Source: Octopus vulgaris
Taxonomy: Eukaryota
Direction: 5' to 3'
Length of the DNA stretch: 64,000 nt
Assembly: GCA_951406725.2 (NCBI GenBank)
Contig: OX597831.1
Span: forward strand, 49,662,001-49,726,000
Shown piece after piece: positions 11,003 to 61,842 of the stretch. Numbering within the stretch: the first letter of the stretch is position 1; each line of letters begins with the position of its first letter. Under the pieces are notes generated by a model. That model did no database searches, was not told the origin of the DNA, and worked only from the letters and a program-made list of their open reading frames with translations. The position numbers were made by a program, and so were the translations under genes.

Positions 11003-11805
11003 CAGATGTTGCCGTGTGGTAAGAAGCTTCTAAAGCACATGGTTCTGGCTCCAGTCCTACTGTGTGGCACCCGACCCAAGCCTTGTTAGTGTATTTGGTA
11101 AATGGAAACTGAACGAACCCCGTCGTATATATATATATATATATATATATATATATATATATATATATAATTAATCAATATAGGGTGGCAAAAAAATTTT
11201 GTAGAATTTTTTGCCACCAGCGGCTAGTAGGAAAAAATTAAAATAGTCATAGACCATTTTTAAGTTTAACATCAACAATAAAGGAACGGCCATATAGGCC
11301 ATTCACCCACTAGAAATAACAGCAAAGTTCAACGCAAATAAAAGTTAATTCAGTAAACAGAGAAAATTTAAAAAATTTTAAAAATTTAAAATTTAAAAAA
11401 TTTTAAAAATTTTAAAAATTTAAAAAATTTTAAAAATTTAAAAAATTTACAGGGTAAATGTTTTTTAAATTTTCTCCTGGTTTACTGTTAACTTTATGTG
11501 GCACCCGACCCAAGCCTTGTTAGTGTATTTGGTAATGGTGAATGAACTAACCCCGTCGTATATATATATATATATATATATATATATATATATATATGTG
11601 AATATTTTTTGTCTCTGTCTCCACCATCGCTTGACAACAGATGTTGGTGTGTGTACGTCTCTGTAACTTAGCCATTCGGCAAAAATAACGATAGAATAAG
11701 TACTAGGTTTAGAATAAGGTATGGGGTCGATTTGTTCGCCTAAAGGCGGTGCTCTAATGTGGCCGTAGTCAAATAACTGAAACAAGTAAAAGAATAAAAC
11801 AAAAA
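11003..11805 (+). mobile_element. tRNA-derived SINE with internal (TA)n, split by an insertion
   Basis: 5' half 11003-11126 and 3' half to ~11805 match the full copy at 58345-58745. Confidence 0.8.
11170..11496 (-). mobile_element. (TA)n-anchored non-autonomous PLE-like element
   Basis: Terminal hairpin GGTGGCAAAAAA..TTTTTTGCCACC (11184-11218), long-range stem 11224-11231/11306-11313, GCTGTTATTTCTA motif on the minus strand, (AAAAATTTT)n core inside inverted arms. Confidence 0.55.
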
Positions 11806-12089
11806 TGAATATATATATATATATATATATATATATATATATATATGACAGAGAGGGGGAGCCCAAAACAGGAGATTGGGAAGAACTTTGGCTTTATTCA
11901 TTTACTGTTACAGGTATTTCATTTGTCAAGAGGTGTTACAAATTGTGTATATAAGGGAAGCATGTAAGATACTCCTATTGGCAATTCTTCTGGCAGATAA
12001 TATGAACTCTACATTTGGGTGAAGCCCTTCGTCAGTAATCAGAAATCCTATAGAGAGCTGGAAAGAGACTAGAGAATAAAACTAATATA

Positions 12090-12591
12090 TTGGATTGTCC
12101 GGAAAGTTCATGCCGATTTATAGTAGATTACCTTTTCGACTTATTGTAGAACATGGCTGAGTCCATAAAATAGCATTTGACTACACCTCCATTTAGAGCA
12201 CAGTTTAAGCTATCTTTTCGTGGAAGAAGGTTTATGTTCCTTTAACCTGTGTTTAATTCTGTAACCCTTTAAAATGGAAGATAAGAAAGTTCATTTTCGG
12301 CACTTGATGCGTTGGGAACCAGACAAAAATTGCTGCAGCTCGGCTGGGATGTGTTACCTCTCAATCGTAAAAATTTCAATTCCTTGGTTGACGTAAAAAG
12401 ATACCTTGATGAATTCTTTGCCATGAAACCACCTCAGTTCCGGGAAGAGGGTATTTTCAAGCAAAAGGAAAGATGGAGAGGCATTGTGCAACAAAATGGT
12501 TCATAGTTGGTTGATTAAAAATGTAATGGCAAGTATTTATTGACCTTTTTCTTTCCTTTAAAAATCGGCACGAACTTTCCGAATAACCCAA
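12090..12591 (+). mobile_element. internally deleted mariner transposon
   Basis: TIRs TTGGATTGTCCGGAAAGTTCATGCCGATTT / AAATCGGCACGAACTTTCCGAATAACCCAA, TA on both sides; transposase N-terminus MEDKKVHFRHLM joined to TRQKLLQLGWDVLP and C-terminal FFAMKP..F.EEGI....RW..IVQQNG. Confidence 0.92.
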
Positions 12592-12643
12592 TAGTAAAAG
12601 ATAGAATAAAAGAAGCGATGTAATATGTATACACACATACACA

Positions 12644-12830
12644 ATATATATATATATATATATATATATATATATATATATATATATATATATATTATAT
12701 ATATATATATATATATATATATATATATATATATATATATATATATATATATATATATATATATATATATATATATATATATATATATATATATATATAT
12801 ATATATATATATATATATATATATATATAT
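12644..12830. repeat. long (TA)n microsatellite
   Basis: Directly visible. Other long (TA)n or mixed TA/CA tracts lie at ~418, 14046, 14812, 15895, 16452, 22555, 28037, 29293, 30767, 34521, 36155, 37674, 38139, 40388, 48540 and 60611. Confidence 0.98.
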
Positions 12831-13228
12831 AAATATAAAAAAAAAAAGGCTGCTATTTCTAATGAGTTCAGTATGTGGCAAAGTAATTTATTTTACTAAG
12901 CCCTTTATAAAATGTAATATTTTGAATTCGCCTTAAATGGTCCCTTTACATACTGAATACTTCGTGAAATTGATTAATAATTAATTAATTTTACCCTTAA
13001 TTGTTGAAATTATAATTCATTTCTCTCTGTTTAATGCTTCGGTTTTCACCGATAAAATTATGGTGTTTGCTAGGTTAGCCCACGTGGGTGGAAAGGGGAG
13101 GGCAGAAATTCTTCGCTTGCATATTTTGAATTTGTTGGCACTGTTAGTCTGAACGGATCTTCGGAGGTGAAAAGTCGCCAAAAGGGTATGCTCCTACTTT
13201 CAGTGTTTACAAATCCGAATTAAGGAAT

Positions 13229-58745: not shown

Positions 58746-59187
58746 ATATATATATATATATATATCAATAATACAGTGATTGTTTCTTATCAGGAACAAA
58801 ATGTTTAATAGGTCTGCTATGGAAGTGCTCAATTAAATGAGACAAATATATTAAACTATGGTTGCAGAACAAACAAATACAAGGTCATCCACGTAACATT
58901 TCATATCTCGAACATTTAATCATAGAATATACATGTATAACATCACGGAAGATGAAACATAACTCATCAGTACAAGCATATAAGAAAATGCGAGAAAAAT
59001 GTGTGAATACAGTTCATCACGGTTAAAAGTTAATACTTTAGCGATTAAGAAATATATATTTTTTTAAAAAACATTACAACACCTAGAATAATAAATACGT
59101 AAAAATTTAAAGTAATATATAAATATATAGATATATAAAAATATATAAAAATACATATATATAGGAAGCATATAAATAAGTAATATA

Positions 59188-59580
59188 TCTTTATATGTAA
59201 AAGTGAAGTTGTGTGTCTGTCTCCTACGATTTAGATTCCTAACTATTCCCACATTTTACGGTGCAGTGTAACCAAAAGCGGGTATCTTATAGTCGTGATT
59301 CATATCGAGCCCTTCTGGGTATTAGCGTGCGACTACGATGAGTCTACGATTTTGAAAACAATTTATCATCATTTTTTCCCATTTTTAATGCATTTCTTGC
59401 TATTATATAAGGGAAGTAACTCTCTAAAAATGTATTATTAAATCTCAGAACGTAAAAAGCTACAGTAACACCCCCTTTGTGGTTAACCATATTGAGATGG
59501 CTATTATACTTTACATCTCTAAAAATGCTTATATAGTTATTTCCCTTACAAACCCGAGCAACGCCGGGCGATACTGCTAG
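59188..59580 (+). mobile_element. non-autonomous Helitron
   Basis: A|TCTTTATATGTAAAAG 5' end; 3' hairpin CCCGAGCAACGCCGGG then CGATACTG-CTAG|T; AT target, no TSD. Confidence 0.85.
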
Positions 59581-59734
59581 TAATATATAAAGTAAGATAA
59601 AAGGTCATCGTTTAGAAATTTTTGTTTCATTAAAAATTACTTTTCAGATAAGGGAAACCTATAGTTAAAAGCCAGTGTCCAAGCAAAAAAGAAGAAACCA
59701 TATTTACATTCCCTATGGCCATTTCGGGGGTACA

Positions 59735-60610
59735 TTACTTTATTTAATGCACGAGGGTGCATCACAATAATAACTTCGTCAGGGGGAAAAAATAGAGAGA
59801 CAGACATCACGTACCAGGGCGAGACCTCCTTAACCAGACCATGATTTTTTATTATCCATAAGGGCATACATAGAATGGACGATACAATCACGGATGATTT
59901 TACATATAAAGCGCAATTTGGGGTCGATAAAAATTTAACATGATTTTATATAAAACGAATGAATAAACAACACAATGGACATTTTTTAAACAAATGGAGT
60001 GGGGCGGGTTTACGGACCCCACGAACCCCGCCTCTCACTGACCACGGTTTTTGGGCTTATCTCGCACCCACGAGAGACCTTTTATACACGACATTCTTCC
60101 ATCTTTCATCAAACACTTTCTTACTCAGGTCCCTCCTTTCCAGCCCTATTTGTCTCTTTAGGTGGAACATAAGAAATTCCACTAAACCAGGACCAGAAAT
60201 GAAGTTGCCTGACATCAACCCTCTCATCCTTGTCTTCCACACTACTTGTTTCGCGACTGCTACCACAGAGAGTAAACAATTCTTACCTTCTTTCGTTAAG
60301 AAATCCGGCGGGTCAATTTTCACTATAGATTCAGTCGATAGCTGTGCTCTTCCTCCACCTGACAACAGTTGTTCGGCACAAACCCACATGTCTGACACCT
60401 CCGGACACTGCACAATCGCATGCGAGACGGTTTACCTGTCTCGCCCACATCTTGGACAGATCAGGGTGTCGTGGCCACCATGCATTGAGAGTTTATCCCG
60501 AACAGGTAAGGCACCTCGGTAACACTGCCATGCCAAGGACTTCTGAAAATTATCCAGGGTCCTCGGCTCGAATGTACGTTGGAACAGTCTGGCCAGCTGA
60601 TTATCGTCGA
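59735..60610 (-). mobile_element. 5'-truncated L1/Tx1-clade LINE (ORF2 end plus 3' UTR)
   Basis: [24 protein letters not shown]....CPRCG..TVSHAIVQCPEV...VAVAKQVVWKTR...FHLKRQIGLER..F.ERW (ORF 60057-60413 and upstream). Confidence 0.85.
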
Positions 60611-61842
60611 AATATATACATATAAATATATATATATACTATATATATATATATATATATATATATATATATATATATATAAATATATACATATAATATA
60701 TATATATATATATATATATATATATATATATATAAATAAATATATACATATAAAATATATATATATATATATAAATAAATATATACATATAAATATATAT
60801 ATATATATATATATATATATAAATATATGCATATAAATATATATATATATATATATATATACATAAATATAAATAAATAAATATACATATATATAAATAT
60901 ATATATATATATAAATATAAATAAATAAATAAATATACATAAATATATATATATATATATATATATATATATATATATATATATATATATATATATATAT
61001 ATAAATAAATAAATAAATAAATATACGTATATATATATATACATAATTAAAATTCAGGTGAGTTAGGCACTTCAATGGAAGCACCAAGTCACTCCGGTAT
61101 TATCCGCACACCTCGAAGTAAGATGAGTAAAATCAAAATAAGTCACAGGTTATCAAGTAGTAATGCAATACTTTCACGTCATATTATACTTACGTTCAAA
61201 TTTCTGGTGTGGACTGATAAGATAAATTTCGTTTAACTACTGGAGCAAAACGCAATGAGTTGCTAAAATCATTAACTTGTCGGACAAAATACTTAGCAGG
61301 ATAACCACAAGAATTTTCCCATACATCCAAAAAACATTAACCAGTTTATAAAATAGCTTTTATCAAAACTACTCTGGCGGTGACGTTTCTGTCTTTTCCT
61401 AGTAATAATATATCAGGGCAATCTTTTTTTTCTATTTTCTATTGTAAGAATTGAGACAGGTTTGATTGATATATCGTCACGATTCATGCCACATATAAAT
61501 ACTTATTCGTTGGTTTTATTTCAAAGTGTCTTGATTTCGCATCTCGTCAAAACTGTTGCATTGTGTCAAAATGTGTTACTTTACGAGTGGTTCAAATAAA
61601 TTCTCTATTCAATTTTCTATATCTACCCAAAGATAAATCCAATAGTGTGGAAGAGAACAGAGCAGTGAGAGAATGTCGAACCCACTGGAAACTAATCTTG
61701 GTTTCATAGTTTTCAATACGAAGATTGAAATCTTCGTCTTTTGATTAGGCTATGCTCGAATCTGTCAGACACATTTCATTATAAACACATATAAAAACGC
61801 TTATTAAAATTCTTTTGTTCATATTTATTGCTTTTATACTTT

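Follow-up and report, generated by a model that had tools for sequence, protein, structure and literature searches.

Non-coding hammerhead repeats lie in several (TA)n microsatellites within a 64-kb window of the Octopus vulgaris genome (64,000 nucleotides, positions 49,662,001 to 49,726,000 of contig OX597831.1, assembly GCA_951406725.2; coordinates below are those of the window). At least eight lineages of these repeats, namely A, B, C, D, G, H, I, and J (the letters A-J and Q are family labels coined in the present analysis), have in common an RNA cassette of 135-175 nt with covarying helices. We consider it probable that this cassette is an RNA signal, which is bound by a Penelope-like reverse transcriptase (RT)-endonuclease, likely of the Neptune type, and copied from two internal starts; the fold would likely give a Penelope-type transposon enzyme its hold on the repeats for copying. 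The initial annotation had described a 3′-terminal structure and had read it as a signal for RT recognition or priming. This reading is supported by the covariation, by the enrichment next to (TA)n, and by the lack of any Rfam family over the cassette, but the 3′-terminal location was not borne out: the cassette is internal to the tandem unit and marks two ends, so that a single terminal signal would become an internal one with two starts.

A structured cassette common to dissimilar repeats

The cassette-bearing families consist of tandem non-coding units of 462-584 bp (∼560 bp in A, ∼525 bp in C, and ∼492 bp in D), each of which contains a type I hammerhead motif with a palindromic stem III and a predicted cut 70-130 nt 5′ of the 12-nt anchor that opens the cassette; a hammerhead upstream of the anchor was found in copies of families A, B, C, D, G, and I. 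The units have no coding capacity, and a tblastn search of the window with two Penelope-like proteins matched only a fragment at 19.3 kb. The elements are otherwise dissimilar, as had been noted from the outset: BLAST among the A/B, C, D, and J units found nothing beyond one 20-nt match, and A and B units match each other nowhere outside the cassette.

Folding and alignment place in order the CTGYTMTTTCYA-like anchor, the 5′ arm of a long-range stem (P1), a hairpin enclosed by P1 (P2), CT with an AU-rich strand, a small hairpin (P4) between this strand and the 3′ arm of P1, that 3′ arm, a linker, and a last hairpin (P3), which is again followed by CT and an AU-rich strand. Insertions end either behind P2 (short end) or behind P3 (long end). 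The sequence of anchor, stem, linker, and terminal hairpin had been recognized correctly, whereas P2, the end behind it, and P4 had been overlooked. The anchor is present as proposed, but its consensus is corrected to CTG(C/T)T(A/C)TTTC(T/C)A, with GATCTATTTCTA in family C, and it is absent from the family with the stem at 15149.

In the family A insertion at 12848-14048 (plus strand), which self-BLAST and sequence delimit as two 564-bp hammerhead units plus 73 nt with a short end before (TA)n, the anchor CTGCTATTTCTA occupies 13414-13425 (also 12850 and 13978), and the 5′ arm of P1 (13431-13440) pairs with its 3′ arm at 13512-13521. P2 (13441-13466) is stacked on P1 and followed by CT and the AU-rich stretch that holds the short end, and P3 (13527-13559) includes two G-U pairs and precedes a CT, with the long end 13-19 nt further on in copies that end here. 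The hammerhead core up to its predicted cut, with a palindromic stem III, spans 13235-13284 (second copy, 13798-13847), ∼125-130 nt 5′ of the anchor. The stems annotated at 12867/12948, 54468/54567, 54732/54808, 11313/11231 (minus strand), and 15149/15201 are exact in their coordinates, and the stem with a U-G pair in the copy at 34140 was located at 34375/34457. The array at 29351 has the TTCAGTATGC/GCATACTGAA stem in both arms.

Because MAFFT misaligned the stems over all lineages, two groups were aligned apart. Clustering of cassettes at 92% identity gave 41 clusters, 9 of which were dropped (chance stem, short-ended copy, or deleted variant); alignment A2 comprises 25 clusters and one C copy (26 sequences), and alignment A3 (families A, B, and H) comprises 7 clusters and 6 further copies (13 sequences). 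With representatives that were chosen for having stems, a choice that inflates all pairing and covariation figures, 89.5% of 495 cells are paired in A2, versus 79.1% when shuffled and 33-49% when slid, and double changes occur at 12 of 20 pairs (e.g., U-A/C-G and G-C/A-U in P1; G-C/A-U and U-A/A-U in P3). The compensatory changes claimed initially also appear on the tree, where 8 or 12 double-change events compare with 1.3-1.6 expected and with a maximum of 6-7 in 2,000 simulations, by a test of our own design rather than R-scape. In A3, 94.4% of cells are paired, double changes occur at 6 of 29 pairs, and RNAalifold recovers P1, P2, and P3. Moreover, sequence is conserved in the 12-nt anchor, which is unpaired, and in the CT that follows each of the two hairpins. 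The earlier assignment of G-U pairs to the hammerhead-sense strand was upheld: those in P1 and P3 favor hammerhead-sense RNA, and in 30 of 39 representatives, including 13/13 in the A/B/H group, the better fold is that of the sense strand rather than the antisense strand. Rfam returned no family at gathering score anywhere in the window and left the cassette unmatched at E≤1 over 12840-15300; its Hammerhead_1 model matched 15017-15089 (family E) with 31.5 bits, below the gathering score of 34.

The genome searched is microsatellite-rich and comprises 2.8 Gb in 227 contigs, and non-coding hammerhead repeats inserted in (TA)n are present in thousands of copies; family searches returned 972-2,818 first-look candidates per family, 40 of which were scored for each. 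Among sequencing runs, the matches listed comprised 20 under four organism labels, none of them recorded as RNA. The terminal-hairpin pattern had 10,223 matches versus 770 for the reversed pattern used as a control. The enrichment next to (TA)n is pronounced, since an anchor followed by (TA)n 135-165 nt downstream occurs 5,592 times versus 51 in the reversed control (one count per start), or 35,585 versus 439 with repeats counted. A 16-mer form of the anchor had 6,272 matches versus 7. Among 98 distinct 16-mer sites, drawn from 99 of the first 100 matches listed, our script classed 26 as short, 19 as long, 9 as internal, and 44 as other; by eye, 8 of the last class belong to cassette families, 13 lie in two repeats without TA ends, and the remainder look decayed or unrelated. 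The anchor by itself is non-diagnostic, with 36 of the 98 sites lacking the cassette.

Two insertion ends and their pairing

In tandem arrays, the cassette continues into the next unit and therefore does not form the RNA's 3′ end. The two points at which insertions end are ∼70-110 nt apart, and both discrete ends were seen in families A, C, and D, as well as in B, G, H, I, and J. A fixed short spacer between hairpin and (TA)n had been noted before, but its length of 15-20 nt is corrected to mostly 11-17 nt, with shorter spacers in families G and J; the TA run most often starts 10-11 nt behind P2 (A, C, and D) and 14-17 nt behind P3. In the modal end classes, 1-4 nt are common to the TA run and the unit. 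Most TATA/ATAT sites within the units are unused as ends, and the short ends of families C and D, with 12 and 10 TATA/ATAT starts per unit, respectively, fall where there is none, so ends are positioned in accordance with the hairpins rather than by simple resemblance to the target. Ends at a fixed distance behind hairpins in several lineages fit a signal for RT recognition and start.

Among same-family head-to-head loci with both ends resolved, 52 of 53 pair a long end with a short end, one (L130) has two long ends, and none has two short ends, the last class being under-sampled because most loci came from searches that required a long end, which leaves the long+long class unaffected. The script had listed 53 rows, 51 as long+short and 2 as long+long; of the latter, L075 was dropped because its arms are of different families, and L117 proved to be a D pair of the long+short kind, beside which a separate B copy lies. 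The count excludes loci in which an end was cut or unclear, and L364 and L366 are probably a single duplicated event. In the anchor-only sample, which has no bias toward either end, all 9 rows are long+short. Further, 45 of 50 loci have two arms that are closer to each other than the median for the family, a count that pools subfamilies and includes two rows with <20 aligned letters. Twin priming of the L1 type, which would have a fixed inversion point, was rejected, as the 5′ ends of long arms are scattered. They are likewise scattered with respect to the hammerhead cut site, which indicates that cut monomers are not the usual template.

We propose that the repeat would be transcribed as a multimer or circle, and that the enzyme, probably a dimer, would bind the P1-closed fold. 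It would nick both (TA)n strands, with each nick priming complementary DNA (cDNA) synthesis, helped by the 1-4 nt pairing, one start lying behind P2 and the other behind P3. The distance to each start would be measured by its hairpin and CU, as by a ruler, and P1 would fix the relative geometry of the two start modules, which lie ∼70-110 nt apart on a single RNA. The two 5′-truncated cDNAs would be joined head to head, and the long+short rule would record the use of both starts by one complex. A narrower version is possible, though doubtful: one cassette RNA would load an RT-endonuclease dimer and offer a start module to each nicked strand, so that both arms would come from the same molecule, with the second RT displacing the first cDNA. 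If this version is true, the cassette would provide the telomerase-related Penelope-type RT class with its first defined RNA recognition element, one that is kept by at least eight parasite lineages yet absent from the host element, and it would account for the inverted arm and tail that mark Penelope insertions.

The paired arms could also be read in another way, in which the long end alone is a true target-primed start and the short inverted arm is made later, on cDNA or an antisense template, by self-priming or a template jump; the hairpins would then act at the DNA level or mark copying stops. Self-priming on an antisense template has been proposed for head-to-head Penelope structures (PMC3846280), and the shared sequence of the two arms and the often palindromic inversion junctions would suit it. 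However, short ends also close single-orientation copies (at 14048 in the window and in other singles), both ends have an identical hairpin-CT-spacer layout, the G-U pairs of P1 and P3 favor hammerhead-sense RNA, and both strands were extended in vitro in a related system (PMC11167929), which together make this reading quite unlikely.

Rolling-circle DNA elements of the non-autonomous Helitron/Helentron type, whose subterminal inverted repeat (subTIR) and 3′ hairpin would be DNA signals, are largely refuted as an explanation and appear extremely improbable. Helitron/Helentron ends do combine a stem with a hairpin that lies 10-20 nt from the terminus, and the cassette resembles them in its stem and near-terminal hairpin. 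Yet such elements have a fixed 5′ end, a 3′ end defined by CTRR or the subTIR, and no inverted truncated arms, whereas the octopus repeats have (i) a hammerhead in every unit, (ii) variable 5′ truncation with head-to-head arms, (iii) 3′ ends without CTRR, and (iv) the G-U asymmetry; moreover, an RT-encoding element obeys the identical end rule.

A candidate enzyme and related systems

That element emerged from a genome search for GIY-YIG, which gave 148 matches, many of them with an open 781-codon frame that comprises an RT, a CxxxxCxxC linker, and, at the C terminus, a GIY-YIG domain. The Neptune linker is defined as CX2-5CxxC (PMC8557442), and with this linker between an RT and a GIY-YIG at the C terminus, the 781-codon element is, by its predicted architecture, of the Neptune type. 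Among the 120 relatives listed, none is a named reference protein that would separate Neptune from Nematis. The element's insertions lie in (TA)n, and its two ends are separated by 38 nt; 7/7 inverted loci are long+short, and 24 of 31 long ends lie 15 nt behind hairpin-CT. It also has a hammerhead-like motif with U3-A8 replacing C3-G8, a variant that is active. This young family (L261-L310; e.g., G000:C16:20834000-20842500) has many intact 781-codon frames (e.g., G000:C16:20836744-20839090), an upstream frame, and the 38-nt tail. By age and target, the Neptune-type element is the most plausible enzyme.

A check of the ends of full-length Penelope-like elements had been proposed; in the loci sampled it was negative for the cassette and detected the hairpin-CT-15 nt module alone. 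The Neptune-type element was thus rejected as the direct source of the cassette, and with no cassette in it the enzyme partnership is unproven. Its motif GCAGCATTTTC agrees with the anchor region at 8 of 11 positions, which is a resemblance only. In the Neptune-type and Hydra-like loci, a non-exhaustive sample of autonomous families, no sequence was shared with the pseudo-long terminal repeats (pLTRs), and a motif look-up in the supplement of PMC8557442 gave two matches, both away from element ends. A 2026 octopus genome annotation reports 31 recently active Penelope-like families (PMC13282606), so other candidate enzymes may exist. The window itself contains a broken Hydra-like Penelope-like element ('Hydra-like' denotes likeness to the supplement sequences) at 17095-19600 on the minus strand, with linker cysteines, GIY-YIG at 18110-18559, an in-frame expanded trinucleotide tract, and a hammerhead at 17296-17205. 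This fragment (17.1-19.5 kb) was rejected as a partner, its 3′ end being unlike the cassette.

Three families depart from the common plan. The pieces at 15149, 61066, and 33980 had been grouped with the cassette, and they do share the terminal hairpin, but they belong to separate hammerhead families, E, F, and Q, respectively. Families F and Q have the terminal hairpin, CCT, and two ends, and lack the anchor and P1; 2/2 (F) and 10/10 (Q) resolved inverted loci are long+short. Family E has a P1-like stem and scores 26 bits with the A2 covariance model (E 0.09), comparable to family A.

Several observations weigh against the cassette as an enzyme's handle, in addition to the selection of stem-bearing representatives. 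Within the fold, the tree test of the A/B/H group is marginal (3 versus 0.8, p ∼0.05) with one helix off register, P4 pairs in only 79% (A2), and the antisense strand folds equally well or better in 9 of 39 representatives. The anchor motif is present too in repeats without TA ends, and the similarity of paired arms might reflect one master locus or conversion. Family E, despite its P1-like stem, has one end and no inverted copy (30 loci), and the long+short rule is also followed where P1 and the anchor are lacking, in families Q and F and in the Neptune-type element, so P1 is not generally needed for the rule. Finally, the covariance model matched no element ends among 50 GIY-YIG and 30 Hydra-like loci, where its matches are separate insertions.

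Some of these observations would suit a different role, in which the helices serve the RNA's own life (circle stability, hammerhead folding, or silencing escape) and the enzyme starts at AU-rich single strands by any hairpin, with the fold as no specific handle. Animal retrozyme RNAs have been described as highly self-paired circles (PMC7229834), the two-end rule is the same in families without the cassette, and the autonomous element lacks it. We nevertheless regard this role as rather unlikely, in that distant lineages resemble each other in the cassette alone, its unpaired anchor and CT are conserved in sequence, and the ends lie at fixed distances.

Judged from their sequence, the elements fit animal non-LTR retrozymes, which are non-coding tandem repeats of low GC content with a type I hammerhead per unit and have been proposed to be mobilized by Penelope-like elements (Cervera and de la Pena 2020, PMC7229834; Li, Clavereau and Pollet 2026, bioRxiv 10.64898/2026.07.22.740005); the palindromic stem III type I form is described for Penelope-associated hammerheads (PMC4209133). 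The likeness lies in tandem, non-coding, low-GC units that each have a type I hammerhead. Units of 462-584 bp (401 bp in E) modestly extend the described 150-450 bp within the same kind, and the available text of those accounts describes no conserved cis structure, fixed ends, or head-to-head arms; no homology of the octopus repeats to a pLTR was found in the same genome. Penelope-like insertions share partial tandems, an inverted 5′-truncated arm, an extension at one end, and (TA)n targeting (PMC3846280; PMC8557442). Their tail is 30-40 nt in those descriptions, versus ∼70-110 nt here, where it is linked to a covarying fold of several helices; the one-end tail rule, as far as it is set out there, is qualitative, whereas it is counted here in protein-free repeats.

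Closest in mechanism is Poseidon of Anolis carolinensis, which in vitro nicks and extends both strands, uses two internal starts that match the genomic tail, and is modeled as a dimer (PMC11167929, Frangieh et al. 2024). It resembles the predicted octopus system in having two internal starts downstream of a hammerhead, an AT-rich target, and a predicted dimer. Its starts lie in an AC-rich stem-loop inside the open reading frame, whereas those proposed here lie 11-17 nt behind two hairpins of a non-coding RNA; and its binding motif is mapped, in the available text, to 172 nt only, whereas here a fold is defined by covariation. The 3′ ends of short interspersed nuclear elements (SINEs) are recognized by RTs of long interspersed nuclear elements (LINEs), such that a stem-loop near the copied end borrows the RT. 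The octopus repeats are similar as non-autonomous RNAs with a stem-loop near the copied end, but no sequence shared with a partner 3′ end was found, and the signal is internal with two starts.

The element class and the tail are already known, and we did not find the cassette described: literature searches returned no account of a conserved cis structure for retrozymes or Penelope-like elements, although Repbase/Dfam and the PMC13282606 library may list the families under other names. The cassette bears on how Penelope-like RTs choose their template and on why insertions are inverted with a one-arm tail. A 160-nt fold delineated by natural compensatory changes, two predicted starts, and an intact candidate enzyme from the genome itself allow exact mutants to be tested; such tests would show how retrozymes borrow an RT and could yield a signal of small size that directs target-primed insertion into (TA)n.

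Further copies and neighboring elements in the window

Self-BLAST of the window sorts the stems into families A (3 insertions) and B (2 insertions) and single copies of C, D, E, F, and Q. Besides the insertion described above, family A is present as a head-to-head pair, with a left arm at 29351-30180 (minus strand; long end at ∼29351; hammerhead 29682-29639) and a right arm at 30180-30766 (plus strand; hammerhead 30520-30563; short end at ∼30766), and as a 5′-truncated copy at 34139-34523 (plus strand), with a hammerhead at 34187-34230, the P1 noted above, and a long end. The family B head-to-head pair has a left arm with a short end (54311-54410, minus strand) and a right arm with a long end (54420-54635, plus strand; anchor at 54453, P3 from 54583). 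A family B fragment at 47829-47935 (minus strand; anchor 47906-47895, short end) was missing from the initial annotation. Families C (54678-54887, plus strand) and D (11170-11360, minus strand) are represented by 5′-truncated copies of 525-bp and 492-bp units, respectively, both with a long end and with the hammerhead in other copies.

The family E copy (14867-15257, plus strand) consists of a 401-bp unit with the hammerhead, the P1-like stem, and the terminal hairpin, without the anchor and with one end. The lone terminal hairpins were confirmed at 61085-61066 and 33998-33981, both on the minus strand. The former lies in a fragment of F (61046-61171), an older hammerhead family with two ends and no P1, and the latter in a fragment of the hammerhead family Q (33958-34128), with two ends ∼185 nt apart and no anchor.

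Elements often adjoin or nest at one (TA)n, as at 54635-54678 and 34128-34139 in the window and at L075, L117, L270, and L233 elsewhere, so mixed-family arrays accumulate at single microsatellites. A further element between (TA)n runs at 14311-14811 contains a near-perfect palindrome (14318-14411) and a ∼250-bp repeat, looks like another short+long head-to-head insertion, and recurs in pieces in L275, L446, and L454. Further hammerhead or cassette families were noted at L242/L262 (G000:C16:33682000-33682500), L234:413-566, L257/L347, and L445:1829-1966, one of them with a canonical stem III and hairpin-CT followed by 14 nt to (TA)n. The two anchor-bearing repeats without TA ends are represented by L421, L418, L359, L363, L370, L371, and L373, and by L352, L388, L392, L414, L419, and L422; L421 has two outward-facing anchors at the inner edge of long inverted arms, like a DNA element with long terminal inverted repeats.

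Two related frames on the minus strand, at 8968-9321 and 60057-60431, resemble the C-terminal end of a LINE protein and have no Pfam match; a Pfam search of three window frames gave none. An abundant family of SINE-like repeats, likewise bounded by (TA)n, lies at 11052-11170, 11485-11800, 31850-32250, 43518-43850, and 58434-58770.

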